A DNA stretch of 64,000 nucleotides, taken from an uncultured Lentisphaerota bacterium (GTDB lineage Bacteria > Verrucomicrobiota > Kiritimatiellia > CAIQIC01). Under the pieces are notes generated by a model. That model ran no database searches. It was given only the letters and a program-made list of their open reading frames with translations, and was not told the DNA's origin. Shown here in pieces: positions 1,421 through 62,433 of this stretch (within the stretch, counting starts at the first letter, position 1; every line of letters starts with the position of its first letter). The stretch covers positions 68,763 through 132,762 of the forward strand of contig CAISWQ010000038.1 in assembly GCA_903889245.1 (NCBI GenBank). Direction: 5' to 3'. A program made the translations under genes and the position numbers.

Positions 1421-3189
1421 AACACCATCTCTATCATGCCGCCATTCTGCTGTCCGTGATGTTACGGGCGGCCGGTGCCGCCGGGACATCCTACGACCTC
1501 TATCAGCCGGCGGTGAAGCACGTCACGATCCACGAGGGCCAGCTCGCGCCGGGGCATTTCGCCTATAACCACATGGCGTCGGTGGAATGGTTCGACGGCC
1601 AGTTCCATTGCGTCTGGGGCGCGCACGCCGAAACGCATCTGGAAGGCAAGCCGGGCCAGCTCAACATCTGGGCGACGAGTCCGGATTTCGAGACGTGGAG
1701 CGCGCCGCAGCCGCTGGCGCATACGGGCGCGCATGCGCTGGCGCGCGATCCGCAGTGCGTGCAATGGCAGCCGAACCTGCTGAACTATCACGACCGCCAG
1801 CTCTGGTGCGTGTGGTCGTTCAACAGCAAGAACACCGAACTCGACGGGCTCTGGTTGAGCACGCTGGACAAAAGTTCCAAGGCTTGGAAACACCGGCGCA
1901 TCCAGCGGCGGCAGGAGGCCAACGGCGTGCCGTGTTCCATCTTCGCGAGCCAGAATCCCGTACTGCTCGCCTCCGGCCGCGTGCTCGCGCCGGTGACCCT
2001 GAACTACCGTGGCGGCAGCACCAACTCTGTCCGGCGCTGGAACGCCTGCTTCTATACCGATGATGGCGGCGCGACGTGGGCCTGCTCGAACCCGATCAGT
2101 TCCGTGGACGATGCCGAGGCGCAGTGGGAGCCGTTCTTCTATGAGCAGGCCGATGGGAAAATCCGCGCCTACATGCGCAACTTCACCAAGGGCGTCGCCT
2201 ATCCCACGCACTGGCGGCTGACGACCACCGGCACCGGCGCGGCCAAGGGCACGCCGGTCAGATTCCCGGACGACCCGGTTTATTCATTCATGGAGACGGT
2301 CAACTGCCGCCCGCAGATTTTCCGACTCGAAGGCGGCCGCTACTGCCTGCTGCAGCAGGATGCGTTCGTGAACCACCGCGACTACTCGACGCGGCTGAAT
2401 ATCGCGCTGAACTTCAGCCGCAGCGGCGCGGACGATTTCGTCGCCGGCCCGCCGGTCTCGCGGCCGGAGGTGATCAGTGCCTACCCGCAGGGCGTCGCGC
2501 ATGGCGGCAACCTCTACCTCGCCTACAGCGCCGGGCCTGGCAACGAGGCGCGCAGCATCGAGGGCGCGATCGTCACGCCCGCGCCGCGCGGCGCTGTCCA
2601 CTACGTCTGGCCGCGCTCGAAGGAACTGATCAAGATGCAGGAAGAGAAGGACGCGGCCGGCAAAAAGAAAGTCGTCCGCACCAATCCCGACGCGCGCACG
2701 GCGCTGCCGAAGATCAAGACGGTGGACCAGCGCAAGATGATCCAGTTCAGCGCGCGCGCCAGCGCCGGCGTTGACCTCGATCCGGTTGATTTCGCCGCCG
2801 GCCAGTCGCTGGCTTTTAAGTTTGAGACCAAGGTACTGCGGCTGCAGCCGGTCGGGCGGCTGGTCTTCTGCTCGCTTGGCGACCGCTTCCCGATCCGGCT
2901 GGGCATGATGGCCAACCGGCCCGACCAGCTCTATGTCTACACGCGCAACCAGTGGGAGCCGGTCTGCGCTTTCCCGATGCAGCAGTGGCACACGGTCCAG
3001 CTCACCGTGCGCGGCGCGGACTTCTCGGTGGCCGTGGATAGCCAGCCGGCAAAAACTTTTCCGAATCCGCTCGTCAACCCGACGCCGCGCCTCTATCTGG
3101 GCGACGGCTTCGAGGTGGACTATGTCTACAGCCTGTCCGGCTCCGAGTTCCTGGTGGACCTCGGCTCGCTGAGCAGCGAGGTGAAGTGA
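1417..3189 (+). CDS. secreted BNR/sialidase-like (six-bladed beta-propeller glycosidase-like) protein
   Basis: N-terminal signal peptide MKHHLYHAAILLSVMLRAAGAAG. There are repeated S/T-x-D-x-G-x-T/W-W Asp-box-like segments (TDDGGATWACS, FHCVWG, LWCVWS). The start overlaps the previous stop. Confidence 0.55.
   Translation: MKHHLYHAAILLSVMLRAAGAAGTSYDLYQPAVKHVTIHEGQLAPGHFAYNHMASVEWFDGQFHCVWGAHAETHLEGKPGQLNIWATSPDFETWSAPQPLAHTGAHALARDPQCVQWQPNLLNYHDRQLWCVWSFNSKNTELDGLWLSTLDKSSKAWKHRRIQRRQEANGVPCSIFASQNPVLLASGRVLAPVTLNYRGGSTNSVRRWNACFYTDDGGATWACSNPISSVDDAEAQWEPFFYEQADGKIRAYMRNFTKGVAYPTHWRLTTTGTGAAKGTPVRFPDDPVYSFMETVNCRPQIFRLEGGRYCLLQQDAFVNHRDYSTRLNIALNFSRSGADDFVAGPPVSRPEVISAYPQGVAHGGNLYLAYSAGPGNEARSIEGAIVTPAPRGAVHYVWPRSKELIKMQEEKDAAGKKKVVRTNPDARTALPKIKTVDQRKMIQFSARASAGVDLDPVDFAAGQSLAFKFETKVLRLQPVGRLVFCSLGDRFPIRLGMMANRPDQLYVYTRNQWEPVCAFPMQQWHTVQLTVRGADFSVAVDSQPAKTFPNPLVNPTPRLYLGDGFEVDYVYSLSGSEFLVDLGSLSSEVK
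1873..1891. repeat. single copy of palindrome AGTTCCAAGGCTTGGAAAC inside the CDS
   Basis: Exact 15-bp core TTCCAAGGCTTGGAA, translated KAWK in frame. Confidence 0.6.
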
Positions 3190-4399: not shown

Positions 4400-4437
4400 G
4401 ATTGCGTTTGGTAGAACTAAATGCTGTCATATGGCCT

Positions 4438-5592
4438 ATGAAAACACGGCATTATTGGATGGAATTGATTGAGAAAACCTGGCGGGAGCGTTCCGTCATC
4501 TGGTTGGCTGGTGTGCGCCGGGTTGGCAAAACCTGCCTGTGCCGGTCGTTGTCCGATGTGGACTATTTCGACTGCGAGTTACCACGTGTGCGTCGGGAAC
4601 TGGCGGATCCGGAGGCCTTCCTGCGCGGGTCGCGGGGGAAACGGGTAGTACTCGACGAGATTCATCGGCTGGCCAATCCCGCGGAGTTGCTCAAGATCGC
4701 AGCGGATCATTTCCCTCAAATCCGCGTCTTGGCCACGGGTTCCTCGACGCTGGGTGCCTCGGCCAAATTCAAGGACACATTGACAGGGCGCAAGCGCGAT
4801 CTGCGTCTCACGCCCATGACGGTGAGCGATTTGGATGATTTCGGCCGGCCCGACCAGCGCCACCGGTTGTTGCGGGGTGGGCTGCCGCCGTTTTTTCTGG
4901 CCGACGAATTGCCGGAAAAAGATTTCCAGGAGTGGATGGATGCCTACTGGGCCAAGGATATTCAGGAGCTGTTCCGGCTGGAGCGGCGCAGTTCCTTTCA
5001 AAAATTCTTTGAGTTACTCATGGCCCAAAGCGGCGGCATTTTTGAGGCAACACGGTTCGCCACCCCGTGCGAGGTCAGCCGCCAGACCATCACCAACTAT
5101 CTCGCCGTGTTGGAGGCCACCTTTGTCGTGCATGTCCTGCGGCCCTTCAGCACCCGGCGGGCGACAGAAATAGTGGCCGCGCCCAAGGTCTATGGTTTCG
5201 ACAGCGGCTTTGTCTGTTATCACCGTGGCTGGCATAGCCTGCGCAGCGATGATCTGGGCCCGCTTTGGGAGCATTTTGTCCTCAACGAAATCCAGGCCCG
5301 GCTACCCGGCCAGCCGGTGCTCTACTGGCGCGACAAAAGCCTGCACGAGGTGGATTTTGTCCTGCAACGGCGCGGCGCAGCGCCTTTGGCCATCGAATGC
5401 AAATGGAGCGCAGACGGCTTTGACCCGACGAACCTGCTGGCTTTCCGCCATCAATATCCGCAGGGCCGAAATTTTGTCGTGTGCAACGATGTGGAACGGA
5501 TCAGTCGCCGGCAGCACCGTAACATCGAGGTGGAATTTGTGAATCTACCCCAGCTTGTTGACCGGCTGACAGAGGGAGCAAAACGACTATGA
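4438..5592 (+). CDS. AAA+ ATPase, AAA_14/DUF4143 family
   Basis: Walker A GVRRVGKT and Walker B VVLDEIH, plus a C-terminal DUF4143-like region (YLAVLEATFVVHVLRPF...GFDSGF). GC is visibly lower than in the neighbouring genes. The start could instead be 4402. Confidence 0.75.
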   Translation: MKTRHYWMELIEKTWRERSVIWLAGVRRVGKTCLCRSLSDVDYFDCELPRVRRELADPEAFLRGSRGKRVVLDEIHRLANPAELLKIAADHFPQIRVLATGSSTLGASAKFKDTLTGRKRDLRLTPMTVSDLDDFGRPDQRHRLLRGGLPPFFLADELPEKDFQEWMDAYWAKDIQELFRLERRSSFQKFFELLMAQSGGIFEATRFATPCEVSRQTITNYLAVLEATFVVHVLRPFSTRRATEIVAAPKVYGFDSGFVCYHRGWHSLRSDDLGPLWEHFVLNEIQARLPGQPVLYWRDKSLHEVDFVLQRRGAAPLAIECKWSADGFDPTNLLAFRHQYPQGRNFVVCNDVERISRRQHRNIEVEFVNLPQLVDRLTEGAKRL

Positions 5593-7329: not shown

Positions 7330-7473
7330 TTTTCCAGGGATTGGAAAACACAACGCCGGTTTTTCCAGGGATGGGAAGATTTCGCGCCCAGCTTTTCCAA
7401 GCCTTGGAAACTCTCGCTGAATTTTTCCCGAGGCCTGGAAAAAGCCGCCGTGAATTTTCCGGGCCTTGGAAAA
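7330..7473. repeat. array of 5 palindromic units (TTTTCCARGNNTGGAAAA-like) at 30-32 bp period
   Basis: The units start at about 7330, 7362, 7393, 7423 and 7455. Copies 3 and 5 are near-perfect; copies 2 and 4 are degenerate. Confidence 0.9.
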
Positions 7474-11346: not shown

Positions 11347-11397
11347 TTTTTCCAAGGGTTGGAAAAATTTCCGGCGTTTTTTCCAAGGCTTGGAAAA
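11347..11397. repeat. palindrome doublet (2 units, 31 bp apart)
   Basis: TTTTTCCAAGGGTTGGAAAAA and TTTTTTCCAAGGCTTGGAAAA, about 45 bp upstream of the PEP-CTERM gene start. Confidence 0.9.
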
Positions 11398-14678: not shown

Positions 14679-14730
14679 TTTTCCAATGCTTGGAAAAAGC
14701 GCTGATGCCACTTTCCAATCCTTGGAAAAA
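14679..14730. repeat. palindrome doublet (2 units, 32 bp apart)
   Basis: TTTTCCAATGCTTGGAAAAA and CTTTCCAATCCTTGGAAAAA, 50-100 bp upstream of the GH78 start. The 57-bp unit including its spacer is about 85% identical to the unit inside sulfatase 17624-17676. Confidence 0.9.
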
Positions 14731-14779
14731 CTCGCCGGCGCGGTATGACCACGACCCCGTTACGTCCGGGAAAGGGACT

Positions 14780-17575
14780 ATGAAAACTGTCTGCCGGGTG
14801 CTGGTGTGCGTGGCCGCGCTGCTTTCATGCGCGGCGGCGGAGACGGAGTTGCGAGTGGTGGAGTTGACGTGCGAACACGCCCGTGATCCGCTGGGCATCG
14901 CGCTGCGCGCGCCCCGCTTGAGCTGGCAGTTGGTGTCTGCCGCGCGCGGGCAGAGCCAGACGGCGTACCGGATTCTGGCGGCGCGCAGCCGGGAGGCGCT
15001 CGCGGCGGGGCGTGGCGACGCGTGGGATTCCGGCAAGGTGGCCTCGGCGGGAAGTGTGCTGGTGCCATGCGGCGGGAAGCTGCCCAAGGCTGGCGAGCGC
15101 GTCTGGTGGCAGGTGCAAGTCTGGGATCGGGAGAACCGCGCTTCGCCGTGGTCGGAGCCGGCGTTCTTCGAGGTCGGCCTGCTCAACGCGGCAGACTGGG
15201 GTGGTGCGCAGTGGATCCGGCTTGCCGGCGATCCGCGCTCCTCGGAACTTGCCGAGCGCAAGCTACAGACGAAAAACATGAAGGCGCCCGTGACACGTCG
15301 CGCGTTTCCCGCGCCGCTGTTGCGGCGCGAATTTGCGGTGCGGCAGGGAGTGGCGCGCGCCCGCGCCTATGTCTGTGGCTTGGGCCTGCATGAGTTGTTC
15401 ATCAATGGCCAGCGGATGGGCCATGATGTTTTGCAGCCGGCGGTAACGACGTATGACGAGCGTGCGTTCGCCGTTGCCTATGATGTGACGGCGGCGCTCA
15501 CGCCGGGACGCAACGCGATGGGGCTGGCGCTGGGCAACGGCTTCTTCGGCCAGAATCTGGCGTTCACCGTGAATTTCCTGCACTGGGGCCCGCCGGTGGC
15601 ACTGGCCAAACTCGTCATTGAGTATGGCGATGGCACCAGCGAGACGATCATCAGCGATGCCGCTTGGCACGCGGGCACCGGGCCGGTGGTCTTCGACAAT
15701 CTCTATGCCGGCGAAAGCTTCGACGCGCGGCTCGCCGTGGACGGCTGGTCACGGGCCGGCTTTGATGACAAAACTTGGAAAACCGTCGAGGTGGTGCCTG
15801 CGCCGACGAAGCGCGTCGAGATGCAAATGCTCCAGCCGTGCCGACGGATCAGCGAACTCAAACCGGTGAGCGTCAAGCGGACACCGGATGGCCGCTGGTT
15901 GGTGGATCTGGGCCGCAACATCGCCGGCTGGGTCCGTTTGCGGGTGACGCAGCCGGCGGGTACGCGCCTCACGTTGCGTTTCGCCGAAATTTTGAGCCAC
16001 GACGGTACGCGGTTGGAGACGGGCTCCACGGGCCACTTCGCCACCGGCTGCGAGCAGGCCGACCTCTACGTCTGCCGCGGCGGCGGCGTGGAAACGTGGG
16101 AGCCGCGCTTCACCTATCACGGTTTCCGTCACGTGGAAATCGCCGGTTGCGCCACGGAGCCGGATGTGACCGGCGTCGTGGTCAATACGGCGTTGGAGGC
16201 GCAGGGTGCCTTCACCTGCCCGGACCCGCTGCTCAAGCGCATCTATGATGTTTCGCTCTGGACGATCGAGGGCAACCTCCACGGTACGACCGAGGACTGT
16301 CCGCACCGCGAGCGGTGCGCGTGGCTTGGCGATGCGCATGCACAGGCGGCGACCACGCTGCTGAACTACAAGGCAGCGCCGCTCTTCGCCAAGTTCATGG
16401 ACGATGTCGAGACCGTGCTCGGGCGCGGCGGCCAGACCTACGAGAAAAAGCCGGCCACGCCCGGTATTCCGTGCAACATCGCCGTCGGCCGGCGGCTGTG
16501 TCAGGAGGCGCGCCCCGACTGGGGCGTGGCGGTCGTCCTGCTGCCGTGGGAGGTCTATCGCTACACCGGCGACGACAGCGTGATCCGCACCCACTATCCG
16601 CTGATGACGCGGTGGGTGGACTATGTATCGGCAATGGCCGTCGAGGACATCGTCAACCAAGGTTATGGCGACTGGTGTCCGCCCGGCGGCAACGAGCACA
16701 TCGAATGCCCCGTGCCGCTCTCCTCGACGGCGTTGCATATCGCCGCGCTGCGGTTGATGGCCGACGCCGCGCGTCTGCTGGAGAAGCCGGCGGAGGCCGA
16801 ATGTTTTGCGGCTGCGGCCCAGCGCTTCCACGCGGCCTTCAACCGGCGCTTCTACGATGTCAAGGCGCACTCCTACGGCAGCCAGACGGCCAATGTGCTC
16901 GCGCTGCGCTTTGGTCTGGCGCCGGAGGGCGCGCGGCTGGCGGTCGGCGCCGCGCTGGCGCGCGAGGTGGGCGAGCGCCATCAGGGCCATCCGTTCATCG
17001 GCATCCATGGCGGCGTTGGACTCTTTACGCTGTTGGGCGATACCGGTCATGCCGATGTCGCGTGGCGCGCGCTGAACGTGGCCGGCTATCCGGGCTTCAA
17101 GTTTGTGCTCGGCCTGGGCCTGACCACGTGGCCGGAACGCTATGACGCCGACTTTGATCCGGCCACCGCCCGCTCGCTCAATCACCCGATGCAGTCGGGT
17201 TTCGCCACGTGGTTCCATGAAGCGGTCGGCGGCCTGCGCCCGCTCGCGCCCGGCTTCCGCCAGTTCGAACTGCGCCCGCAGATGATGCGTTGGCTCGACG
17301 CGGCGCGCGTCGAGCACCGCTCGCCCTACGGCGCGATCATCAGCGACTACCACCGCGCAGGCGGCAATATGCACTGGAGCGTCACCGTGCCCGTGGGCAC
17401 CGAAGCCTTCGTCACGCTACCGGCCGACAACGCCGACGCTGTGCGCGAGTCCGGCCAACCGCTCGCGCAAGCCCGCGGAATTTCCGCCGTCCGCGCCGCA
17501 AACCAAACGGTGGGTTTCACGCTCGCCTCTGGTAGTTTTGCTTTTGTGTTGCCGTTAGCCAGCGCAGGGAAATAA
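14780..17575 (+). CDS. alpha-L-rhamnosidase, glycoside hydrolase family 78
   Basis: Signal peptide MKTVCRVLVCVAALLSCAAA. The N-terminal RLSWQL...QTAYRI block, the DCPHRERCAWLGD block (GH78 DCPxRxER-GW-GD region) and a C-terminal beta-sandwich are clearly paralogous to the gene at 47282. Confidence 0.8.
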   Translation: MKTVCRVLVCVAALLSCAAAETELRVVELTCEHARDPLGIALRAPRLSWQLVSAARGQSQTAYRILAARSREALAAGRGDAWDSGKVASAGSVLVPCGGKLPKAGERVWWQVQVWDRENRASPWSEPAFFEVGLLNAADWGGAQWIRLAGDPRSSELAERKLQTKNMKAPVTRRAFPAPLLRREFAVRQGVARARAYVCGLGLHELFINGQRMGHDVLQPAVTTYDERAFAVAYDVTAALTPGRNAMGLALGNGFFGQNLAFTVNFLHWGPPVALAKLVIEYGDGTSETIISDAAWHAGTGPVVFDNLYAGESFDARLAVDGWSRAGFDDKTWKTVEVVPAPTKRVEMQMLQPCRRISELKPVSVKRTPDGRWLVDLGRNIAGWVRLRVTQPAGTRLTLRFAEILSHDGTRLETGSTGHFATGCEQADLYVCRGGGVETWEPRFTYHGFRHVEIAGCATEPDVTGVVVNTALEAQGAFTCPDPLLKRIYDVSLWTIEGNLHGTTEDCPHRERCAWLGDAHAQAATTLLNYKAAPLFAKFMDDVETVLGRGGQTYEKKPATPGIPCNIAVGRRLCQEARPDWGVAVVLLPWEVYRYTGDDSVIRTHYPLMTRWVDYVSAMAVEDIVNQGYGDWCPPGGNEHIECPVPLSSTALHIAALRLMADAARLLEKPAEAECFAAAAQRFHAAFNRRFYDVKAHSYGSQTANVLALRFGLAPEGARLAVGAALAREVGERHQGHPFIGIHGGVGLFTLLGDTGHADVAWRALNVAGYPGFKFVLGLGLTTWPERYDADFDPATARSLNHPMQSGFATWFHEAVGGLRPLAPGFRQFELRPQMMRWLDAARVEHRSPYGAIISDYHRAGGNMHWSVTVPVGTEAFVTLPADNADAVRESGQPLAQARGISAVRAANQTVGFTLASGSFAFVLPLASAGK

Positions 17576-17586
17576 TCAACCTCACC

Positions 17587-19026
17587 ATGAAAACATTGCC
17601 TGCCATTCTTACGGTGTTTTGCGTTTTTCCAATGCTTGGAAAAAGTGCCGACTCCACTTTCCAACCCTTGGAAAAACCGCCGCGCCCGAACATCGTCTAT
17701 ATCCTCGCCGATGATCTTGGCTTCGCCGACGTGGGTTTCCACGGGCCGGAGATCAAGACGCCGCACATCGACAAGCTCGCCGCCGCCGGCACGAAGCTGG
17801 AAGCGTTCTACGTCCTGCCGGTCTGCACGCCGACGCGCTCGGCGCTGATGACCGGCCGCTACCCGATCCGCTACGGCCGCCAGTACAACGTCATCCGCCC
17901 CGGCTCGCAGGTCGGGCTCGCGCTCGAAGAGCGCCTGCTGCCGCAGGCCCTGCGCGAGGCCGGCTACGCGACGGCGCTGTGCGGCAAGTGGCACCTTGGC
18001 GATTTCAAGGCGGAATATCTGCCGATGGCGCGCGGCTTCGAGCACCAGTTCGGCTTCTGCTCGCACGGCGAAAAATTCACGCACTTCCCGAAAGGCGACT
18101 GCGGCTTGATGCGCGACCAGAAGCCGATCACCGAAGAAGGCTACCTCGCGCACATGACCGCCAACGAGGCGATCCGCCAGATCGAACAGCGTGATGTGAA
18201 CAAGCCGCTCTTCCTCTACGTCGCGTTCAACGCGGTACACAATCCGCTGGAGTGTCCGCCAGAATATGCCAAACCCTATGCAGCGCTCGGCCCGACGCGC
18301 AGCCTCTACGCTGGCATGACCGCCGCGATGGATGAGGACATCGGGAAAATCCTCGAGGCTATCGGGCGCGCCGGCATGGCCAGCAACACGCTCATCATCT
18401 TCCACAGCGACAACGGCGGGCTGACCACCAAGGGCAAGATCGCCAGCAACGCGCCGCTGCGCGGCGGCAAGGGCTCGCTCTATGAGGGCGGCGTCCGTGC
18501 CTGCGCCTGCGCCACGTGGCCCGTCCATATCCCGGCCGGCGCGGCGCTCAAGGAGCCGCTGCACGTCGTGGACTGGTATCCCACGCTGCTCAAGCTCGCG
18601 GGCGCCGCGCTCGAGCAGAAGCAACCGCTCGATGGACGCGATATCTGGCCGGTGCTCACCCAGAACAAACCTTCGCCGCACGATGTGCTCCTGCTCAACA
18701 CCGTCGGCCGCACCGGCGCCGTGCGCATGGGCGACTGGAAGCTCGTCCGCAATGGCAAGTGGGACGACGACGAGGACAGCAGCGGCGCGAAGCCGACGCG
18801 CGAGGAGAAGCAGAAGCAGCGGCTGGCGCGGCGCGACGCGCCCGACACCTTCGAGCTGTTCAACCTCGCGCAGGACCTCGGCGAAAAAAATAATCTGGCC
18901 CAGCAGCAACCCGACAAGGTGAAGGAACTCACCGCGCGGCTGGACGCCTTCGCCAAGGAGGCGGTCCCGCCGGACCTGGGGCCGCGGCCCGCCGGCGCGA
19001 AGAAGGGCAAGACTTCCGAAAAATGA
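17587..19026 (+). CDS. sulfatase (arylsulfatase-like, formylglycine-dependent)
   Basis: IVYILADDLGFADVGFHG, the CTPTRSALMTGRYP C-x-P-x-R motif, and GKWHLG. Confidence 0.9.
   Translation: MKTLPAILTVFCVFPMLGKSADSTFQPLEKPPRPNIVYILADDLGFADVGFHGPEIKTPHIDKLAAAGTKLEAFYVLPVCTPTRSALMTGRYPIRYGRQYNVIRPGSQVGLALEERLLPQALREAGYATALCGKWHLGDFKAEYLPMARGFEHQFGFCSHGEKFTHFPKGDCGLMRDQKPITEEGYLAHMTANEAIRQIEQRDVNKPLFLYVAFNAVHNPLECPPEYAKPYAALGPTRSLYAGMTAAMDEDIGKILEAIGRAGMASNTLIIFHSDNGGLTTKGKIASNAPLRGGKGSLYEGGVRACACATWPVHIPAGAALKEPLHVVDWYPTLLKLAGAALEQKQPLDGRDIWPVLTQNKPSPHDVLLLNTVGRTGAVRMGDWKLVRNGKWDDDEDSSGAKPTREEKQKQRLARRDAPDTFELFNLAQDLGEKNNLAQQQPDKVKELTARLDAFAKEAVPPDLGPRPAGAKKGKTSEK
17624..17676. repeat. palindrome doublet embedded in the sulfatase 5' coding region (translated FPMLGKS....FQPLEK)
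   Basis: TTTTTCCAATGCTTGGAAAAA and CTTTCCAACCCTTGGAAAAA, 32 bp apart, lying between the signal peptide and the mature sulfatase domain. Confidence 0.9.
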
Positions 19027-19036
19027 AAGGCACACC

Positions 19037-20512
19037 ATGAATTCCCGTCGTGATTTTCTGAAACTCGCCGGCCTCGGCGCGGTCGGCGCCGCGCTTTTTC
19101 CAAGGGTTGGAAAAAGTGCGGCCCCGGTTTTCCAGGGCTTGGAAAAAGGCAAGCGCCCGAGCGTGTTGTTCCTCATCGTGGACGACATGACGACGACGCT
19201 CGGCTGCTACGGCGACCGTGACGCGCGTACGCCGCACATGGATGCGCTCGCCGCGCGCGGCGTCCGCTTCGACCGCGCCTACACGCAATTCTCGCTCTGC
19301 AATCCCTCGCGCTGCTCGTTCCTCACCGGCTGCTACCCGGAGCGCACGAAGGTGTTCGATCTCGTCACGAGTTTGCGCGTGGCGCTGCCGGACGAGGTGA
19401 CGCTGCCGCAGCACTTCAAGAACGCCGGCTACACCGCCGGCCGCATCGGCAAGGTCTTCCACGTGCCCGATCCGAAGACCAAGCCCGATGTCACGCTGGG
19501 GGTGGCACTGCACAAGGATCAGGCGATCCTCGACGAGGCCAAGCTCGCCGAGCGCAGCGAGGGCGACCTTTCCGATCCGCCGCACAAGTCGGGGCGGGAA
19601 GGCAATCAATACAACCGTTGCTATGCGCCGTCACCGCATCCCGACAAGGATTTCACCGACTACCAGATCGCCGAGGAGGCGCTCGCGACGCTGGAGCAGT
19701 TCAAGGACAAGCCGTTCTTCCTCGCGGTCGGTTTCATCCGTCCGCACACGCCCTACGTGGCGCCGCGCCGGTTCTTCGACGCCATTGATCCAACGAAGAT
19801 CGCCATGCCCGCCTTCTATCAGTCCGGCGGCGAGGATCGCGCGAAAATTCCGAACCCCGCGCTGCGGCCGAACAACAATGTCTTCAGGTTCGCCGCGCCG
19901 TCGCCCAAGGAAGCGCGCGAGGCGCGTCGCGCCTATCACGCTTCGACCGCGTGGGTGGATTCCCAGGTCGGCCGCGTGCTCGCCAAGCTCAAGGAGCTGA
20001 AACTCGACGAGAACACCTACGTGCTGCTCACCGGCGACCACGGCTACCAGCTTGGCGAGCACGGCCTGTGGGCGAAGCAGACGCTGTTCGAGGAGGGCAC
20101 GCACGTGCCGCTGCTCGTCGCCGGGCCCGGCATCAAGCCCGGCACCTGTACGGGCCTCGTCGAGCAGGTGGATATTTTCCCGACGCTCGCCGCGCTCGCG
20201 GGGCTAGACATCCCGAAGAGCGTGCAAGGCATGTCGTTGAAGGAGCAGATCGCTGACCCAACCAAGGCGGGCAAGCCGGCGGTCTTCAGCACGATGGTCT
20301 CGACGCACACCAAGCTGATGGGACGCAGCGTGCGCGACGAACGCTTCCGTTACATCGAGTGGGATGAGGGCCGCGCCGGCCGCCAGCTCTATGACCACGA
20401 GGGCGATCCTCACGAGTTGACCAACCTGGCCGATCTGCCGCAACATGCCGCGCGTGTCGGGCAGATGCACGCCCTGCTGGCGCAGCACCTTGAAAAAGTA
20501 AGGAGCAAGTGA
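19037..20512 (+). CDS. sulfatase (iduronate-2-sulfatase-like), Tat-secreted
   Basis: Tat motif SRRDFLKLAGLGA. VLFLIVDD and CNPSRCSFLTGCYP (C-x-P-x-R). Confidence 0.9.
   Translation: MNSRRDFLKLAGLGAVGAALFPRVGKSAAPVFQGLEKGKRPSVLFLIVDDMTTTLGCYGDRDARTPHMDALAARGVRFDRAYTQFSLCNPSRCSFLTGCYPERTKVFDLVTSLRVALPDEVTLPQHFKNAGYTAGRIGKVFHVPDPKTKPDVTLGVALHKDQAILDEAKLAERSEGDLSDPPHKSGREGNQYNRCYAPSPHPDKDFTDYQIAEEALATLEQFKDKPFFLAVGFIRPHTPYVAPRRFFDAIDPTKIAMPAFYQSGGEDRAKIPNPALRPNNNVFRFAAPSPKEAREARRAYHASTAWVDSQVGRVLAKLKELKLDENTYVLLTGDHGYQLGEHGLWAKQTLFEEGTHVPLLVAGPGIKPGTCTGLVEQVDIFPTLAALAGLDIPKSVQGMSLKEQIADPTKAGKPAVFSTMVSTHTKLMGRSVRDERFRYIEWDEGRAGRQLYDHEGDPHELTNLADLPQHAARVGQMHALLAQHLEKVRSK
19095..19147. repeat. palindrome doublet embedded in coding (translated FPRVGKS....FQGLEK)
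   Basis: TTTTTCCAAGGGTTGGAAAAA and GTTTTCCAGGGCTTGGAAAAA, 32 bp apart, immediately after the Tat signal. Confidence 0.9.
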
Positions 20513-20514
20513 CC

Positions 20515-22188
20515 ATGAAGAAGATCATCCTGTCGGTGTTCGTATTCAGTCTCGCCTGCGGCGCCGCGCCGCTGAAGGTCGTCAACGGCGACTTCAGCGA
20601 TCTCGCCGGGCTGACGCAGAAGAGCGATGGCTGGTATGCCGGCCTGCCGAAGGGCTGGACCGGTTCCGAGGGCAGCTATGCCCTCCACACCAAGCGCGGC
20701 GCGACCGCGCCGACGTGCAATCCCTCCACGCTGGGCTTCTTCCGCCAGCAGGTCGGCGTGCTCGAGGCGGCGTCGGACGTCACGCTGACGTTCGATGTTT
20801 CCGATCCTTGGAAACCGGACGTGCTGCTCAACGCCGCGATTCTCGACGGGGACTTGATGGAATTGGCCACCGGCGATTTCAAGGTCGGCACAAAGCAGCA
20901 GCTTGTGGCGCGCGGCGTCCCCGCCGGCACGACGATCATCATCGGTTATCAAGCCGCGAAGTCCACGCCGGGGCTCGACAACGTTTCCGTCGCGGTGCAG
21001 CCGGCGACGGCCGCGCCCGCCGGCGTGGCGGCGAAGGCGAACGCGAAGATCACCGTCGCGAGCTACTACTTCGGCAACTACCATCTGGGCGATCCGCGCA
21101 ACGTGAAAATGAAAGGCAGGGATTGGTGCGAGTGGGAGCTGGTCAAGGCCGCCAAGCCGCGCTTCCCCGGCCACCACCAGCCGAACGTGCCGCTCTGGGG
21201 CTACACCGATGAGTCGGACCCGAAGGCGATGGAGCAGAAGATCGCCGCCGCCGCCGACCACGGCATCGAGGCGTTTATCTTCGACTGGTATTACTACGAT
21301 GACGGCCCGTTCCTCGACCGGCCAATCGATATCGGTTTCCTCAAGGCCGCGAACAACAGCCGCCTCAAGTTCTCCTTCATGTGGGCAAATCACGACTGGA
21401 TCGAGCTGCATCCCTACACGAAGGGCGCACCGCGCAAGGTGCTGTTCCCCGGCAAGGTTTCGCCGGAGAGCTTCGAGAAAATCTGCGCGCACGTCATCAA
21501 CGACTACTTCAAGCATCCGTCCTACTGGAAGATCGAGGGCCAGCCCTACTTCTCGTTCTATGACCTGACCCGGCTGCTGGAGAATTTCGGCTCGGTGGAG
21601 GCGGCGCGCGCCGCGCTGGATAAATTCCGCGCGGCGGTCAAGGCCGCCGGCTTCCCCGGCTTGCACCTCAACGCCGTGGCGTGGGGCCAGCCGATTTTGC
21701 CCAACGAGAAAGTGCCGGTGGATTCCGCCAAGCTCGTGCGCGACCTCGGCTTCGATTCCGTCACCTCCTACGTCTGGATTCATCACGTGCCGCTGCCGCA
21801 GCAGGCGACCGACTACAACCTCGTCCGCGACGGATACTTCAAATATTGGAACAGTGCGGTGAAAAAATTCGGCCTGCCATTCTTCCCGAACGTGACGATG
21901 GGGTGGGATCCCAGCCCGCGCTGCGATCAGCGCGACAAGTTCGACGCGTCCGGCTACCCGTTTACCAACACCATCGGCGGCAACACGCCGGAGCGGTTCA
22001 AGGAAGCGCTCGCGATGACCAAGCGTCGCCTGCTCGCGCAACCGGAGTCCGCCGGCCCGCGCATCCTGAATATCAACTGCTGGAACGAATGGACCGAGGG
22101 TAGTTACCTTGAGCCCGACCAGCGCAACGGAATGAAATATCTTGAGGCCGTCCGCGACGTCTTCGGCGTCCACGCGGCGGCCCCGTGA
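20515..22188 (+). CDS. WbsX/GH99-like family protein (putative glycoside hydrolase), secreted
   Basis: Signal peptide MKKIILSVFVFSLACGAA. Conserved blocks FIFDWYYYDD, FMWANHDW and NINCWNEWTEGSYLEPD are shared with the next gene. The family assignment is from memory and not verified. Confidence 0.55.
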   Translation: MKKIILSVFVFSLACGAAPLKVVNGDFSDLAGLTQKSDGWYAGLPKGWTGSEGSYALHTKRGATAPTCNPSTLGFFRQQVGVLEAASDVTLTFDVSDPWKPDVLLNAAILDGDLMELATGDFKVGTKQQLVARGVPAGTTIIIGYQAAKSTPGLDNVSVAVQPATAAPAGVAAKANAKITVASYYFGNYHLGDPRNVKMKGRDWCEWELVKAAKPRFPGHHQPNVPLWGYTDESDPKAMEQKIAAAADHGIEAFIFDWYYYDDGPFLDRPIDIGFLKAANNSRLKFSFMWANHDWIELHPYTKGAPRKVLFPGKVSPESFEKICAHVINDYFKHPSYWKIEGQPYFSFYDLTRLLENFGSVEAARAALDKFRAAVKAAGFPGLHLNAVAWGQPILPNEKVPVDSAKLVRDLGFDSVTSYVWIHHVPLPQQATDYNLVRDGYFKYWNSAVKKFGLPFFPNVTMGWDPSPRCDQRDKFDASGYPFTNTIGGNTPERFKEALAMTKRRLLAQPESAGPRILNINCWNEWTEGSYLEPDQRNGMKYLEAVRDVFGVHAAAP

Positions 22189-29929: not shown

Positions 29930-29995
29930 TTTACCACCTTGTACCGTTGCGCTGGGTCGGTGACCCGGCCCGCAGTAAGCGAAAGCAAATCTGTT

Positions 29996-30022
29996 GTAGG
30001 CCGCGTGACCTCACGCGGCGTC
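29996..30022. repeat. REP-like element GTAGGCCGCGTGACCTCACGCGGCGTC (9-bp palindromic stem)
   Basis: GCCGCGTGA-CC-TCACGCGGC is a perfect inverted repeat with a 5' GTAG head. A second copy lies at 43222-43248. Confidence 0.7.
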
Positions 30023-30045: not shown

Positions 30046-31443
30046 TCAATGTTTGGCGCCCTAAACGCCGCGGATTTCCAAGCCTTGGAAAAATCCGCGG
30101 AAAAAGTTCCAAGCCTTGGAAAAAATGAGCCGGAAATTTCCAAGGCCTGGAAAAACGGCGGAAATAATTTCCAATCCTTGGAAAACGTCGCCGGTGTGCA
30201 GGCCGTGCTTGCGCACATCCAGCAGGGTTTTCCGCAATCCATCAAGGTGGACACGAAGGGCGACGCCGATGTCGTCGGCCTGCCGCAGCCCTATACGGCG
30301 CCGTGCATCAAGGAGGGTTTCCAGCAGCAGTTTTACTGGGATACCTATTTCATCAACCAAGGGCTGCTGCGCATCGGCATGGCGGAGCAGGCGCGGCACA
30401 ACGTCAACAATCTACTGCTGCTGACCGACCAGTTCGGCATCGTGCCCTCGGCCAACCGGCGCTCGATGGCGAACCGGTCGCAGACGCCGTTTCTCTCGCA
30501 GATGGTGCGCGACTCCTACGAGCACCAGCCCGACGCCGCATGGTTGAAGGGCGCCGTTGCGGTGCTGAAGAAGGATTACCAGTTCTGGATGACGAAACGG
30601 CTCGCGCCGTGCGGGCTGAACCGCAGCGGCAACGACGCGACGGAGCAGTACCTGATGGCCTTTTATTATTACCTCGCGAAGGAGCGCTTCAAGGGGCTCG
30701 CGCTGGCGACGAAGGCGGAGCAACTCGCGTTCAGCAGCCAGGCGTTGAGCGAGGCGGAGACGTGGGACTTCACGCCGCGCTACGACCGCCGCGCCGAGGA
30801 ATTCTGTCCGCTCGACCTCAACAGCAATCTCTATATCTACGAGATGAACTTCGCGTGGTTCAGCAAGATTCTCGGCGCTGGCGAGGAAACGGCGTGGCTG
30901 GCGAAAGCGGAACAGCGCAAGGCGTTGATGCAGGAGTTGCTCTGGAACGAGAAGCTCGGCTGCTATGGCGACTATGACTGGAAGAACAGGAAGCAGGGCG
31001 ACCTCGTCAGTTGCGCCACGCTCTATCCGCTGGTCGCCGGTTTCGCCACGCCGCAGCAGGCGGAGCGGGTCGTCGCGAAGATGCGCGCGGTGCTCGAATG
31101 CGAGCACGGACTCGCGACGTGCGAGCAGCGCAAACATCCGTTCTCCTATCAGTGGGACTTCCCCAACGCGTGGCCGCCGCTACAACTGCTCGCGATCCAG
31201 GGGCTGGACCGCTACGGCTTCAAGGCCGATGCCCAGCGCATCGCCCGCAAGTACGTGGACACCGTCGTGCGGAATTTTGTGAAGACCGGCGACTTGTGGG
31301 AGAAGTACAACGCGGTCACGGGAACGATTGAGGTGAAGGACGAATACCAGATGCCGCGCATGATGGGCTGGACCGCCGGCGTGTTTGTCTGCGCGGCCGA
31401 CTATCTGCACCTGCGAAACAAAACCGGAGAACACAAACCATGA
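30046..31443 (+). CDS. trehalase-like glycoside hydrolase (GH37); start codon uncertain
   Basis: QQQFYWDTYFINQGLL matches trehalase signature 1. QWDFPNAWPPLQ matches signature 2 (QWD-x-PN-x-W-x-P). DLNSNLYIYE is also present. The first in-frame ATG at 30046 would place the palindrome array in coding; the alternative start is GTG near 30196. The N-terminal region is short compared with typical trehalases. Confidence 0.6.
   Translation, partial: SMFGALNAADFQALEKSAEKVPSLGKNEPEISKAWKNGGNNFQSLENVAGVQAVLAHIQQGFPQSIKVDTKGDADVVGLPQPYTAPCIKEGFQQQFYWDTYFINQGLLRIGMAEQARHNVNNLLLLTDQFGIVPSANRRSMANRSQTPFLSQMVRDSYEHQPDAAWLKGAVAVLKKDYQFWMTKRLAPCGLNRSGNDATEQYLMAFYYYLAKERFKGLALATKAEQLAFSSQALSEAETWDFTPRYDRRAEEFCPLDLNSNLYIYEMNFAWFSKILGAGEETAWLAKAEQRKALMQELLWNEKLGCYGDYDWKNRKQGDLVSCATLYPLVAGFATPQQAERVVAKMRAVLECEHGLATCEQRKHPFSYQWDFPNAWPPLQLLAIQGLDRYGFKADAQRIARKYVDTVVRNFVKTGDLWEKYNAVTGTIEVKDEYQMPRMMGWTAGVFVCAADYLHLRNKTGEHKP
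30074..30186. repeat. array of 4 palindromic units at 31 bp period
   Basis: ATTTCCAAGCCTTGGAAAAA, AGTTCCAAGCCTTGGAAAAAA, AATTTCCAAGGCCTGGAAAAA and AATTTCCAATCCTTGGAAAAC. Consecutive copies are read in different frames. Confidence 0.9.
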
Positions 31444-35576: not shown

Positions 35577-35629
35577 CTTTTCCAAGCCCTGGGAAAGGCG
35601 GCCTTGTCTTTTTCCAAGGTTTGGAAGCT
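35577..35629. repeat. palindrome doublet (degenerate, 32 bp apart)
   Basis: CTTTTCCAAGCCCTGGGAAAG and TTTTTCCAAGGTTTGGAAGCT, 25-80 bp upstream of the TolB-like start. Confidence 0.8.
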
Positions 35630-43317: not shown

Positions 43318-43454
43318 GTTTTCCAAGGCTTGGAAAATTTTCCGCGCGTTTTTCCAAGGCTTGGAAAAGTGGCGCCGGGTTGTTGCTGGCGGCGGGCCTG
43401 CTTTTTCCAATGCCTGGAAAAACGGCTGCCGCGACTTTCCAATCCTTGGAAAAC
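43318..43454. repeat. 4 palindromic units arranged as two doublets
   Basis: Units at about 43318, 43349, 43402 and 43435. The first two are noncoding; the last two are read as FPMPGKT....FQSLEN at the sulfatase N-terminus. Confidence 0.9.
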
Positions 43455-50517: not shown

Positions 50518-50568
50518 TTTTTCCAAGGGTTGGAAAACGAAACACGAATTTTTCCAAGCCTTGGAAAC
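50518..50568. repeat. palindrome doublet (31 bp apart)
   Basis: TTTTTCCAAGGGTTGGAAAAC and TTTTTCCAAGCCTTGGAAAC, beginning 6 bp after the GH78 stop and 25-75 bp upstream of the URO-D-family start. Confidence 0.9.
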
Positions 50569-51743: not shown

Positions 51744-53387
51744 ATGATGGCAACCTCGCGACGCGACTTCCTGAAATTGGCCGGCCTCGGCGCGCTGGCT
51801 TTTCCAAGCCTTGGAAAAACTGCCCCCGCCGGTTTCCAACCCTTGGAAAAGTCGCGCCCCAACTTTCTCATCATCCTCGCCGACGACATGGGGTTCTCGG
51901 ACGCGGGCTGCTACGGCAGTGACATCCGCACGCCGCACCTCGACCAACTCGCCGCGCGCGGGTTGCGGTTCACGCAGTTCTATAACACCGGCCGCTGCTG
52001 GCCGACGCGCAGCGCGCTGATCACCGGCTACTACCCGCAGCAGATTCACATGGACCCGCCGCGCGGCCGGCTGCCGCCGTGGACGCGTACGCTGGCACAT
52101 CGCCTCAAGCCGCTCGGCTACCGCAGCTATCACTCCGGCAAGTGGCACGTGAACGGCGCGCCGCGCCCCGTGGCCGAGGGCGGGTTCGAACACTCCTACG
52201 ACCTGGAAGACCACGACCGGAATTTCAATCCGCAGAAAATTTTGCAGGACGACCAGCCGCTGCCGCCGGTGGCGAAGGGCAGCGGTTATTACACGACCAC
52301 GGCGTTCTGTGACCACGCGATCAAATGCCTGAAGGAGCACGCGGAAAAATATTCTGCGCAGCCGTTCTTCTCTTATCTCGCGTTCACGGTGCCGCATTTC
52401 CCGTTGCAGGCGCCGCCGGAAGACATCGCGCGCTACCGTGACCGTTACCTCATGGGCTGGGACAAGGTGCGCGAGGAGCGCTGGCAGAAATTGCGGGAGC
52501 TGAAGATCGTCGCTTGCGGCCTCGCGCCGCTGGAGCCGGGTTTTGCGCCGCGCTACTTCAAGCCGGATGTGCTCGCCAAGCTGGGACCCGGCGAGTCGAA
52601 GCACGCGGTGCCATGGGTGCAGCTGACGGACGAGCAGAAGCAGTATCAGGCGACGAAGATGGCGATCCACGCCGCGATGATCGACCGCATGGATGCCGAG
52701 ATCGGCCGCGTGCTTGCGCAGGTGCGCGCGATGGGCGCCTGGGAGAACACGGTCATCTTCTTCCTTTCCGATAACGGCACCGATGCGACGCTGCTCGTGC
52801 GCGGCGATGGCCACGACCGCGCGGCGGCGCCCGGCTCGGCGGGCTCGTTCCTCTGCCTCGGCCCCGGCTGGTCGAGCGCGGGCAATGCGCCGTTCCGCCG
52901 CCACAAGGTTTGGACGCACGAGGGCGGCATCTCGACGCCGCTGATCGTACACTGGCCCAAGGGCATTGCCGCGCAGGGCGAGCTGCGGCGCGACGTGGGG
53001 CACGTCACTGATTTCGTACCGACGCTGCTCGAGCTTGCTGGCGATACGGCCGCGCCGGCGGCGGGCGCGCCACCGCTGCCGGGCCGGAGTCTCGTCCCGG
53101 CGTTTGGCAGGGACGGCAGCGTGACGCGCGACGAGGTCTTCTTCCATCACGAGGGCAATCGCGCGCTCCGGCAGGGCAACTTCAAGCTTGTCTCGGCGTG
53201 CGAAGACCACAATGAATGGGAACTATTCGATCTGGCGGGCGACCGGTGCGAGCAGCGCAATCTCGCCGCTGCGCAGCCGGAGCGGGTCCGCGCCATGGCC
53301 GCGCGCTGGCAGCAGCTGCAGGAGCAGTTCACGCGCGACGCCGGTCCGGATCTGCCGTTTGCGAAGAAGACCAGAAACGATGATTGA
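51744..53387 (+). CDS. sulfatase (arylsulfatase-like), Tat-secreted
   Basis: Tat motif SRRDFLKLAGLGALA. FLIILADDMGFSDAGCYG and CWPTRSALITGYYP (C-x-P-x-R). Confidence 0.9.
   Translation: MMATSRRDFLKLAGLGALAFPSLGKTAPAGFQPLEKSRPNFLIILADDMGFSDAGCYGSDIRTPHLDQLAARGLRFTQFYNTGRCWPTRSALITGYYPQQIHMDPPRGRLPPWTRTLAHRLKPLGYRSYHSGKWHVNGAPRPVAEGGFEHSYDLEDHDRNFNPQKILQDDQPLPPVAKGSGYYTTTAFCDHAIKCLKEHAEKYSAQPFFSYLAFTVPHFPLQAPPEDIARYRDRYLMGWDKVREERWQKLRELKIVACGLAPLEPGFAPRYFKPDVLAKLGPGESKHAVPWVQLTDEQKQYQATKMAIHAAMIDRMDAEIGRVLAQVRAMGAWENTVIFFLSDNGTDATLLVRGDGHDRAAAPGSAGSFLCLGPGWSSAGNAPFRRHKVWTHEGGISTPLIVHWPKGIAAQGELRRDVGHVTDFVPTLLELAGDTAAPAAGAPPLPGRSLVPAFGRDGSVTRDEVFFHHEGNRALRQGNFKLVSACEDHNEWELFDLAGDRCEQRNLAAAQPERVRAMAARWQQLQEQFTRDAGPDLPFAKKTRNDD
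51800..51850. repeat. palindrome doublet embedded in coding (translated FPSLGKT....FQPLEK)
   Basis: CTTTTCCAAGCCTTGGAAAAA and GGTTTCCAACCCTTGGAAAAG, 32 bp apart, directly after the Tat signal. Confidence 0.9.
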
Positions 53388-58198: not shown

Positions 58199-59547
58199 CA
58201 ACCCGGCAACGTTTCCAAGGATGGGAAATTGAAAGCAGTGGTTTTTCCACGCCTTGGAAACTGCTGCCGCTCGCGCTGCTGGCGGTGTGGCCGGCGCTGG
58301 CCAGTGACACGATCAAGGCGGGCGTGGGCATGGTGGACATCACACCGGCCGAGCCGGTCGTGCTGGCGGGTTCGCCGACCAGGCTGAAGTCCACGGCGGT
58401 CGGCACGCATCTCTATGCGAAAGCGCTGGTGCTGGCCGGCAATGGGTAGCGGGTGGCGATCGTCACCTTGGACACGTTGAAATATCCCGTGGACTGCGTC
58501 GTGCGGGCGCGCCAGGCCGTCGAGCAGGCCACCGGCATCGCAGCGAGCAACGTCATCATCTGTGCCTCGCACACGCACCGCGGTCCGCTGTGGCCCTCTT
58601 ACAAGGATCAACTCGTGACGCCCATCGCCGACGCGGTGGCGCAGGCGGCGCGCGACCTCGCGCCGTGTACGCTCGGTGTGGCGCAGGGCAGGGTCGAGGG
58701 CGTGAGCAAATGCCGCCGCGTGATCAAGGAAGGGCACGCTTGGAACCGCTGGCAGTTGCCGGCGGCGGAGCAGGAAAAATATCCGGCGGAGAGCGCGCTC
58801 GATCCCGCAGTGGGGGTACTGGCGGTGACCGGCCAGGACGGAAAGTATAAGGCAGTCGTGTTCAACTTTGCGTGTCACGCCGCCAACACGCGCGCCCTCG
58901 CGGTCTCGGCGGATTTTCCGGGCGATGCGCAGCAGGTGGTGCAAAAGAAATTGGGCTATGCCGTGCCCACGCTGTTTCTCACCGGCGCCTGTGGCGATGT
59001 GAATCCCATCTACAGCGCGAAACGCGAATTGTTCGGCGAGAAGCTCGGTGGCGAAATCATGCGCTGCCTGGGCCGGCTTGAACCGATCCAGAAGCCGACG
59101 CTGGCGCTGGAATGCCGCGAGTTGCACATGCCGGGCCGCGAGCAGCCGGAATTCAAGGAGGCGGAGGTGATCCGCAACTGGCCCGGCCAGCTTGAGCACT
59201 ACAGAAAATCGTTCAGCGACATGAAGCAGCGGGCCAAGCCGGCCTATCCATTTTTCATCACCAGCCTGCGTCTGGGCGAGGACTTCACCATCGTGACCAA
59301 TCCCGACGAGCTGTTCTGCGAAATCGGTTTGAGCATCAAGCAGCAGTCGCCCTTCAAGCACACGCTGGTCGTCGAGCAGGTCAACGGCGCGCACGGCTAC
59401 ATCCCCACGGCGAAGGCGTTCGCCGGCGGCAGCTACGAGACGTGGTTCGGCGAGCACTCCTATCTCACCACGCGCGCCGGCGACATCATCGAAAAGGAAT
59501 CGCTGGACATCCTGAATCGCTTGAAGCACGCTGAACACAAGCCCTAG
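58195..59547 (+). pseudogene. neutral/alkaline ceramidase-like gene interrupted by an in-frame TAG at 58447-58449 (pseudogene, sequencing error or stop-codon readthrough)
   Basis: The two track ORFs 57748..58449 and 58453..59547 are in the same frame. Read together they align across the TAG with the intact paralog at 60948: ...AKALVLAGNG*RVAIVTLD versus ...AQAVIIASGGKRLAIVGVD. The downstream segment ICASHTHRGP matches the ceramidase catalytic region. Confidence 0.55.
58211..58261. repeat. palindrome doublet (degenerate, 32 bp apart) at the 5' end of the ceramidase-like gene
   Basis: GTTTCCAAGGATGGGAAAT and GTTTTTCCACGCCTTGGAAAC. If the ATG at 58195 is the start, they are read as RFQGWEI....FSTPWK before the hydrophobic signal segment. 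Confidence 0.75.
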
Positions 59548-62315: not shown

Positions 62316-62433
62316 TTTTCCAAGGATTGGTCCCGACCTCGCAGCGCGTCGGGATTCCAAGCCTTGGGAAATCCCCGGCGCTTTTTTCCAAGCCTTGGAA
62401 AAAACGGCCGAAAATTTTCCAAGCCTTGGAAAG
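62316..62433. repeat. array of 4 palindromic units lying between convergent gene ends
   Basis: Units at about 62316 (degenerate), 62352, 62383 and 62414. The last two are near-perfect (TTTTTTCCAAGCCTTGGAAAAAA and ATTTTCCAAGCCTTGGAAAG). Confidence 0.9.

Follow-up and report, generated by a model that had tools for sequence, protein, structure and literature searches.

Repetitive extragenic palindromic (REP) sequences and bacterial interspersed mosaic elements (BIMEs) of enterobacteria and pseudomonads are interspersed palindromes that occur in high copy number at gene boundaries and within operons, form arrays with regular linkers, vary in sequence from species to species and are bound by host proteins. 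Here we describe a short palindromic sequence with the consensus TTTTCCAAGSCTTGGAAAA, the box, which occurs in 2–5 copies per array at a period of 31 or 32 bp. It was found in a stretch of 64,000 nucleotides from the contig CAISWQ010000038.1 of an uncultured Lentisphaerota bacterium (the window). The boxes share the listed properties with REP and BIME, including species-specific variants, and may likewise be bound by a host protein, which is part of our proposal. However, they are AT-rich, near-perfect dyads of 17–19 bp, whereas REP sequences are imperfect, GC-rich palindromes of about 35–40 bp. The boxes keep a strict 31/32-bp period, many copies are translated while REP sequences are extragenic, the same box is present in many genomes of an order, and divergent (promoter) regions are not avoided.

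Two boxes and the spacer between them, here called a doublet, also resemble the REP doublets forming hairpins (REPINs) that are associated with REP-associated tyrosine transposases (RAYTs), in that the doublet shows unit character, namely polarity, within-genome similarity and the potential to fold as a long hairpin (PMC3116915, PMC3337134). In contrast to REPIN copies, which are near-identical over their full length, the spacers between boxes are almost random, each box is a full palindrome by itself, and no RAYT was found. Palindromic repeats that lie both in non-coding DNA and in frame within tolerant coding segments have a parallel in the Rickettsia palindromic elements. Those elements, which Ogata et al. 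reportedly described in 2000, are said to be insertions of 100–150 bp that add a peptide segment to protein genes, whereas here 49 bp are overlaid on codons without clear length change.

A second group of related systems consists of operator arrays. Lrp-type octamers bind 15-bp semi-palindromic sites with wrapped DNA (PMC10201364). As in Lrp/AsnC arrays, several dyad boxes of 13–17 bp lie in one region, and each Lrp box is contacted by a dimer of the octamer. The Lrp sites of Escherichia coli pap and ilvIH are spaced by about three helical turns. This compares with the box period of 31/32 bp and with longer gaps that are multiples of 10.5 bp. Lrp sites, however, are degenerate and limited to certain promoters, whereas near-perfect boxes are met about once per 2 kb, also at convergent junctions and inside genes. 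The cre operators of Firmicutes are palindromic roadblocks that can sit in the first codons of carbohydrate-catabolic genes, and thus also overlap 5′ coding regions. However, cre sites are single, degenerate and bound to the catabolic regulon, while boxes flank housekeeping genes as well. The family seems to represent a variant, not described so far, of interspersed palindromic repeats or of phased operator arrays, notable for its copies in signal-peptide codons.

The box family and its gene context

In its fuller form the box is a dyad of 17–19 bp, TTTTCCAA-GSC-TTGGAAAA. The 17-mer has 65 strand matches in the window compared with 0.07 expected, and about 33 boxes are arranged in 14 clusters at the gene boundaries of an array of carbohydrate-active enzyme and sulfatase genes. 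Box quality is bimodal, with 33 boxes having at most two mismatches, five having exactly three and nine having four. A wider sample, drawn from related loci that total 0.66 Mb, comprised 342 boxes. Here the distance from box to box was 31 bp in 49 cases and 32 bp in 92 cases, and the rarer longer distances of 42/43, 53, 62/63, 73/74 and 83 bp are multiples of the 10.5-bp helical repeat. In the window the translated doublets have a 32-bp period every time and the non-coding arrays mostly have 31 bp. The main non-coding exception is a 32-bp doublet upstream of a GH78 gene, although outside the window 32 bp dominates at non-coding sites too. In the symmetrised logo the spacer carries approximately 0 bits.

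Scanning one genome per species, we detected the doublet pattern in at least 80 loci from at least 27 Kiritimatiellales assemblies. The matches listed are metagenome-assembled genomes (MAGs) named Kiritimatiellia, Kiritimatiellales or Pontiellaceae, or carrying the older names ‘Verrucomicrobia’ and ‘Lentisphaerae’. The viral (phage) contigs scanned contained no doublets. Neither the box sequence nor palindromes in Kiritimatiellales yielded a description in the literature. CRISPR arrays have repeats of at least 23 bp and spacers of at least 26 bp, are long and are accompanied by cas genes. The box arrays differ from these in having 17-bp repeats, 14–15-bp spacers and 2–5 units, and no cas domains were found in the window. 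The box family is apparently an undescribed, lineage-specific, genome-wide interspersed palindromic DNA element.

For the arrays with more than one box, gene strand was assigned by a codon log-odds model, which was correct in 32 of 32 and 8 of 8 cases. Co-directional gene contexts numbered 59, convergent ones 12 and divergent ones 8. Arrays often start 0–10 nt past a stop codon and end 0–30 nt ahead of an ATG. In other genomes they lie directly before genes for SecA, a Mur ligase, RuvB, aspartokinase and an ABC ATPase; since arrays adjoin such housekeeping genes too, they are not specific to polysaccharide genes. Where the gap between genes is only 10–18 bp, as before the sulfatases, the doublet lies inside the coding sequence. 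The window has at least five translated doublets, and in four of the five window sulfatases the doublet follows the core of a twin-arginine translocation (Tat) or Sec leader. A 32-bp doublet is also present inside an MnmE-like GTPase gene of two related MAGs (L068:3742-3790 and L012:962-1010), where it reads FPNLGKKLD(A/D)SFQTLE; the MnmE linker in L068 and L012 is presumably of the same length as that of E. coli MnmE. Comparison of box-free and box-bearing genes suggests that 49 bp are overlaid on signal-peptide or linker codons without clear length change.

A pair of similar doublets upstream of and inside neighbouring genes

Two doublets of the window, 2.9 kb apart, are of particular interest, as one is non-coding and the other is translated. 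They and the genes to which they belong are as follows.

14680..14728, no strand: doublet 1, centres TGC and TCC, 32-bp period, non-coding, spacer of the S1-sulfatase type
14780..17575, plus strand: GH78 alpha-L-rhamnosidase gene downstream of doublet 1, 100% identical to the public protein P0121
17587..19026, plus strand: S1 sulfatase gene, which holds doublet 2
17626..17674, plus strand: doublet 2, centres TGC and CCC, 32-bp period, read as FPMLGK-SADST-FQPLEK

Doublet 1 consists of box 1 (14680-14696, TTTCCAATGCTTGGAAA), a spacer (14697-14711, AAGCGCTGATGCCAC) and box 2 (14712-14728, TTTCCAATCCTTGGAAA). Doublet 2 has the identical box 1 (17626-17642, TTTCCAATGCTTGGAAA), followed by its spacer (17643-17657, AAGTGCCGACTCCAC) and box 2 (17658-17674, TTTCCAACCCTTGGAAA). 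The first-pass annotation had reported the pair as two modules about 85% identical over 57 bp, and both the sequence and, to within one base, the coordinates proved right. Its description of a base-for-base alignment holds for boxes, spacer and A/T runs, which are identical at 48 of 53 positions without a gap. It does not extend to the tail, where a 1-nt indel is required to reach about 85% over 57 bp.

The coding status of the two copies also agrees with the earlier description. Doublet 1 is non-coding; a gap of 283 bp separates the GH78 ATG at 14780 from the preceding stop at 14497, and doublet 1 lies within it, 52 nt upstream of that ATG. The GH78 N-terminus, MKTVCRVLVCVAALLSCAAA, is a normal signal peptide. 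Doublet 2 is translated in frame as sulfatase codons 14–30, MKTLPAILTVFCV-FPMLGK-SADST-FQPLEK-PPRPNIVYILADD. The sulfatase ATG at 17587 is 11 bp past the GH78 stop, and the same start is used in public gene calls. As the Pfam Sulfatase domain extends from residue 34 onward, doublet 2 falls between the signal-peptide core and the domain.

The two spacers are identical at 11 of 15 positions, and box 1 of both doublets has the rare centre TGC, found in 3 of the 33 boxes of the window. A spacer identity of at least 11/15 was reached by 0.24% of 3695 between-genome doublet pairs and by 2.0% of within-genome pairs; at the between-genome rate about 0.05 such pairs would be expected among the 21 pairs of the window. 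The similarity thus exceeds the share contributed by the common boxes, and the spacers are closer to each other than those of random doublets. However, five ‘sulfatase-type’ 32-bp doublets have 8–10 of 15 spacer positions in common, also across genomes. Since sulfatase-type spacers already share that much, the pair exceeds its own class by only about two positions.

Conservation and turnover across genomes

Perfect boxes are present in the S1 orthologs of three genomes. In L081 and L084 neither box of the S1 ortholog deviates from the consensus or has changed its place, although the spacers match at only 8–9 of 15 positions. Doublet 2 is also retained in the orthologs P0003, P0004, P0018 and P0070. 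In more distant S1 orthologs a single box or degenerate remnants are left, or the leader is an ordinary one that lacks boxes; leaders that carry boxes are similar in length to those that do not. L082 has an array of three boxes at the orthologous position upstream of its GH78 ortholog (82% amino acid identity), where the number of boxes and the spacers are different. As judged from these alignments, boxes stay near-perfect at orthologous sites while spacers drift.

Apart from the boxes, some sulfatase leaders have extra short GC-rich inserts around the doublet (L082:13741-13900; P0001, P0018). In L082 and P0001 an interruption of about 33 nt splits box 2, and ‘PL(D/G)(G/S)ARGR’ follows box 2 in L082, P0001 and P0018. 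The leader stretch around the doublet appears to be a hotspot for small insertions.

Unit character of the doublets

The earlier proposal was that the whole doublet behaves as one duplicated or transposed unit, and that a comparison of spacer similarity with gene phylogeny would bear on this. This comparison was carried out. Spacer identity has a mean of 6.40 within genomes and 5.60 between genomes (Mann-Whitney p = 4e-36). The inner spacer positions alone confirm the within-genome excess, which is small when compared with shuffled sequences. Near-identical spacers (14/15 and 11/15) are found in three different sulfatases of L081. That sulfatase paralogs simply inherited their spacers was rejected, as the mature domains of the window sulfatases are just 31–40% identical to one another. 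Spacer similarity therefore follows the genome and not the gene tree, which indicates that whole doublets were copied or homogenised.

The orientation of the boxes gives a similar picture. Although each box is self-complementary, the asymmetric centres inside doublets have the same orientation in 46 cases and are inverted in 21. Centre triplets and the preferred period are genome-specific. One MAG has 42 doublets at 32 bp versus 3 at 31 bp, and in the DAOLCW01 MAG (L007, L033, L034, L039, L043, L075, L079) 18 of 18 centres are ACC, with uniform orientation within the doublet. L034 contains two doublets in opposite orientation 31 bp apart. When oriented, spacers show a weak consensus (2.6 bits versus 1.6 in shuffled sequences for the 31-bp class, 2.1 versus 1.4 for the 32-bp class). 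These observations suggest that the doublet has some unit character, and to this extent the proposal stands. Arrival of the 57 bp as one transposed unit at a naive site is not supported, and most spacers are unshared across the family, with approximately 0 bits in the logo and 2% of within-genome pairs reaching 11/15.

Proposed mechanism and its strongest rival

We propose, with moderate confidence, that the phased boxes are bound by dimers of one clade-specific oligomerising protein and that the similarity of this particular pair is due to conversion from the S1 to the GH78 site. Each box would bind one dimer of this DNA-binding protein, and neighbouring dimers would touch on one face of the helix, three turns apart at 31/32 bp. 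Such an arrangement would be similar to the wrapping of DNA around Lrp-type octamers or to the proteins that bind REP/BIME repeats. The role of the protein could be architectural or insulating at the borders of transcription units, or the protein could belong to a machinery that maintains the repeats. Where there is little intergenic space (10–18 bp), the doublet is overlaid on tolerant signal-peptide codons.

Several points weigh against this proposal. The phasing beyond 31/32 bp is based on only 13 distances, and the inference of gene conversion on about six informative positions. The information content per box is far above what a regulator needs, and genome-specific centres together with polar doublets fit copying from a master element as well as, or better than, independently selected sites. 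In addition, two contigs with S1 orthologs (81% and 73% identity) are box-free in 21 kb each; as boxes are missing near such close orthologs, the system is dispensable and lineage-specific.

The strongest rival is a REPIN-like replicator, which we regard as possible but tentative. Here the boxes would be selfish replicators similar to REPINs or to miniature inverted-repeat transposable elements, and the polar doublet would be a non-autonomous unit copied by a RAYT-type or similar transposase. Doublets would survive only in harmless places, that is, in intergenic DNA and signal-peptide codons, and our pair would be two recent copies. The genome-specific subfamilies of centre triplet and period, the higher spacer similarity within than between genomes, the excess of centres pointing the same way (46 vs 21) and the weak consensus of oriented spacers all agree with such copying. 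So do the inverted doublet pair of L034, the very high information content per box and the absence of boxes from some genomes that carry close orthologs. A single-stranded doublet can fold as one long hairpin, and REPIN-RAYT systems can persist for very long (bioRxiv 10.1101/2021.07.10.451892; PMC3116915).

Replication of this kind would, however, be expected to leave shared spacers, and these are essentially unconserved family-wide, with only 2% of within-genome pairs reaching 11/15. Decayed copies are few, arrays of perfect boxes are kept at orthologous sites, and the doublet in MnmE adds no protein length. An array was present at the GH78 site before the split from L082, in the common ancestor. 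No open reading frame (ORF) resembling an HUH/Y1 transposase was found among the window ORFs or, by a crude and unvalidated regular expression, in 760 kb around arrays. If the replicator reading were true, REPIN biology would be extended to the Planctomycetes–Verrucomicrobia–Chlamydiae (PVC) superphylum, in a short-unit form that tolerates being read in frame.

Returning to the proposed dimer-binding protein, we also considered a broader claim, which we advance as doubtful. The boxes would constitute an undescribed cis-element with about 2000 or more copies in each box-rich Kiritimatiellales genome (extrapolated from one box per 2 kb), at which a candidate oligomerising binder marks or insulates nearly every transcription-unit border; as it would be required at gene starts even in the absence of intergenic DNA, the element would be written into signal-peptide codons, and its identical boxes would be crossover points at which sulfatase and carbohydrate-active enzyme loci swap leaders and neighbouring genes. 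Kiritimatiellales are specialist degraders of sulfated polysaccharides with hundreds of sulfatase and glycosidase genes. A helically phased box that occurs about once per 2 kb offers a handle for finding a major DNA-binding protein of this order. It also explains the odd ‘FPxLGK...FQxLEK’ stretches in predicted signal peptides, and annotators should be aware that such N-termini are shaped by constraints at the DNA level.

Origin of the similarity within the pair

In L082, the last box of the GH78 array (centre TCC) can be aligned with the window copy, and so can the flank downstream of it, in which TATGA is included. Because the L082 ortholog has an array at the same place, the GH78 array site is ancestral. 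The GH78 doublet of the window has a chimeric appearance, with an S1-like part made up of box 1 (TGC) and the spacer and a GH78-like part made up of box 2 (TCC) and the flank. Its spacer matches that of the window S1 doublet at 11 of 15 positions and that of the L084 S1 ortholog, AAGTGCTGATGCTGT, likewise at 11 of 15, compared with 7 of 15 for the orthologous GH78 spacer of L082. The two window copies differ at four spacer positions, and when read in the sulfatase frame three of these differences are synonymous.

This pattern suggests local copying, in which a short gene-conversion tract carried the S1 doublet onto the GH78 array. Box 1 and spacer of the sulfatase doublet would have been copied onto the pre-existing array 2.9 kb upstream, with the perfect boxes supplying the homology, and the sulfatase copy would afterwards have gained three synonymous changes and one replacement. 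We consider the conversion step only moderately secure because there are few informative sites and sulfatase-type spacers share 8–10 of 15 positions anyway. A separate candidate, an orphaned sulfatase leader in the form of a 40-codon ORF (MNFTRSLSPLVPGSWLLGFPMLGKSADATFQSLEKLAGAV*) upstream of GH78, was ruled out, as the DNA upstream of the array aligns with that of the GH78 ortholog.

It is unlikely that the pair shares no descent and that both spacers converged, with the help of chance, on the consensus of the 32-bp class. The S1 spacer is indeed near the oriented family consensus AAsnGCCGnCTCCnY, sulfatase-type spacers of different genomes share 8–11 of 15 positions, and the pair was chosen after the fact. 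However, a match of 11/15 falls in the top 0.24% of between-genome pairs, and the rare TGC centre is common to both doublets. Coding constraint cannot shape the spacer of the GH78 copy, which is non-coding, and this spacer reaches 11/15 with two independent S1 spacers but 7/15 with its own ortholog.

Evidence for action at the level of DNA

Boxes that act as RNA hairpins would be expected to show strand asymmetry. An A>G change on the sense strand would preserve a G-U pair in the mRNA, and T>C is the mirror change. Among 178 boxes oriented by the direction of the flanking gene, we counted 30 A>G and 25 T>C changes (p = 0.59), and a search of the same boxes for compensated base pairs found none. 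The CC/GG core of the box is almost invariant. Rfam searches with the boxes returned nothing at the gathering threshold or at E <= 1. With an empty Rfam result, no strand asymmetry and no covariation, an RNA family or hairpin was rejected.

A peptide motif was ruled out by codon usage and by the non-coding copies. In four sulfatases the boxes read TTT CCA nnn CTT GGA AAA, a codon choice with P = 1.5e-5 at a third-position GC content (GC3) of 0.82, and the rare A/T-ending codons are fixed in every translated copy. Moreover, the box occurs in all three reading frames as well as at non-coding sites. Given the rare codons and the use of all three frames, the peptides FPxLGK, FQxLEK and SKxWK are by-products of the DNA sequence.

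Two further candidates were rejected. A sigma-70-type promoter does not fit, as no -10-like element is present 16–18 nt past the last box, sense counts equal those of the antisense control and 12 arrays are convergent. As to intrinsic terminators, boxes were not called as such, a scan with the consensus gave the same count as shuffled sequence, and arrays are also present in divergent regions. Overall, the evidence points to a double-stranded DNA element and not to an RNA hairpin or a peptide motif.

We therefore find it very unlikely that box hairpins in the mRNA stabilise, process or tune the translation of flanking cistrons in the manner of REP hairpins. Such hairpins are thermodynamically possible, and most arrays do lie in transcribed co-directional junctions, often right after stops or before starts. 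Arrays between divergent genes are not accounted for in this way, and box spacing tracks the helical repeat of DNA. The near-equal counts of 30 and 25 leave no G-U-compatible excess on the sense strand, compensatory pairs are lacking, and neither an Rfam match nor a terminator-like tail was found.

Boxes and possible leader exchange

The sequences around some S1 sulfatases suggest that boxes may serve as recombination junctions, which may also explain the frequent swapping of leaders among sulfatase paralogs. An integron-like system, in which boxes are crossover sites that shuffle gene modules or 5′ ends and the two doublets mark the junctions of a GH78 insertion, is nevertheless highly improbable, for although the contig of a syntenic relative (P0001) has PATR and then S1 directly, without the pseudopilin and GH78 genes, although the window S1 leader is homologous up to box 1 to the leader of a non-orthologous sulfatase that follows GH78 genes in L082 and is S1-type from the spacer onward, and although S1 orthologs of about 80% identity have quite different signal peptides joined at boxes, no recombinase is known or was seen here, ordinary homologous recombination at 17–50-bp repeats gives the same pattern, arrays are far too numerous and also lie between convergent genes and inside MnmE, and the alignment with L082 extends to the DNA that precedes the GH78 array, which is hence GH78’s own, leaving no orphaned S1 leader.

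Other arrays and features of the window

The remaining boxes of the window are distributed as follows.

1874..1890, no strand: single box within a BNR-repeat gene
7331..7472, no strand: five-box array with periods of 31, 32, 31 and 31 bp
11349..11396, no strand: doublet (31 bp) between a LuxR-type response regulator and a PATR-repeat gene
19097..19145, plus strand: doublet in the Tat signal peptide of the sulfatase that comes next (19037-20512), MNSRRDFLKLAGLGAVGAAL-FPRVGK-SAAPV-FQGLEK
20798..20814, no strand: single box with 1 mismatch, within the N-terminal extension of a WbsX-like gene
30075..30184, no strand: array of four boxes with a 31-bp period, upstream of a trehalase-like GH gene
35579..35627, no strand: doublet (32 bp), degenerate, at the 5′ end of a gene with PD40 repeats
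43320..43452, plus strand: two doublets, 53 bp apart, 43320/43351 at 31 bp and 43404/43436 at 32 bp
50520..50567, no strand: doublet (31 bp) from 7 nt after a GH78 stop to about 25 nt before the next ATG
51801..51849, plus strand: doublet in the Tat signal peptide of the sulfatase 51744-53387, FPSLGK-TAPAG-FQPLEK
58212..58260, plus strand: doublet in the signal-peptide n-region of a ceramidase-like gene, MTTRQR-FQGWEIESSGFSTPWK-LLPLALLAVWPALA
62317..62432, no strand: four-box array between convergent genes, first box degenerate

The five-box array at 7331 fills the gap between the stop of a 2-hydroxyacid dehydrogenase gene (7327) and a sensor kinase gene. The doublet at 19097..19145 is conserved in L081 and decaying in L084. 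The second doublet of the 43320..43452 region reads FPMPGK-TAAAT-FQSLEN and lies directly before a sulfatase domain. Flanking the array at 62317..62432 are the ceramidase-like gene on the plus strand and a LuxR-type regulator (62477-63253) on the minus strand.

A second repeat, TGTAGGCCGCGTGACCT(T/C)ACGCGGCGT, is present at 29995-30021 and 43221-43247, 80–100 bp upstream of both four-box regions. This repeat, in which there is a GC-rich hairpin (GCCGCGTGA / TCACGCGGC), may serve the preceding genes as a terminator-like element. The stretch 41680-43380, which makes up about 1.7 kb of DNA upstream of the 43320 array, has long ORFs on both strands without a Pfam match.

The ceramidase-like gene (58195-59547) starts at 58195, where its start overlaps the upstream stop as ATGA. 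It has an in-frame TAG at 58447-58449, after which conserved ceramidase sequence continues, so that a pseudogene, a sequencing error or read-through is possible. The end of this gene (59385-59540) and the start of an unannotated gene (56960-57115) share a direct repeat of 156 nt with 87% identity. Finally, a gene for an AAA_14/DUF4143 ATPase (4402-5592) lies mid-run among otherwise catabolic, co-directional genes.

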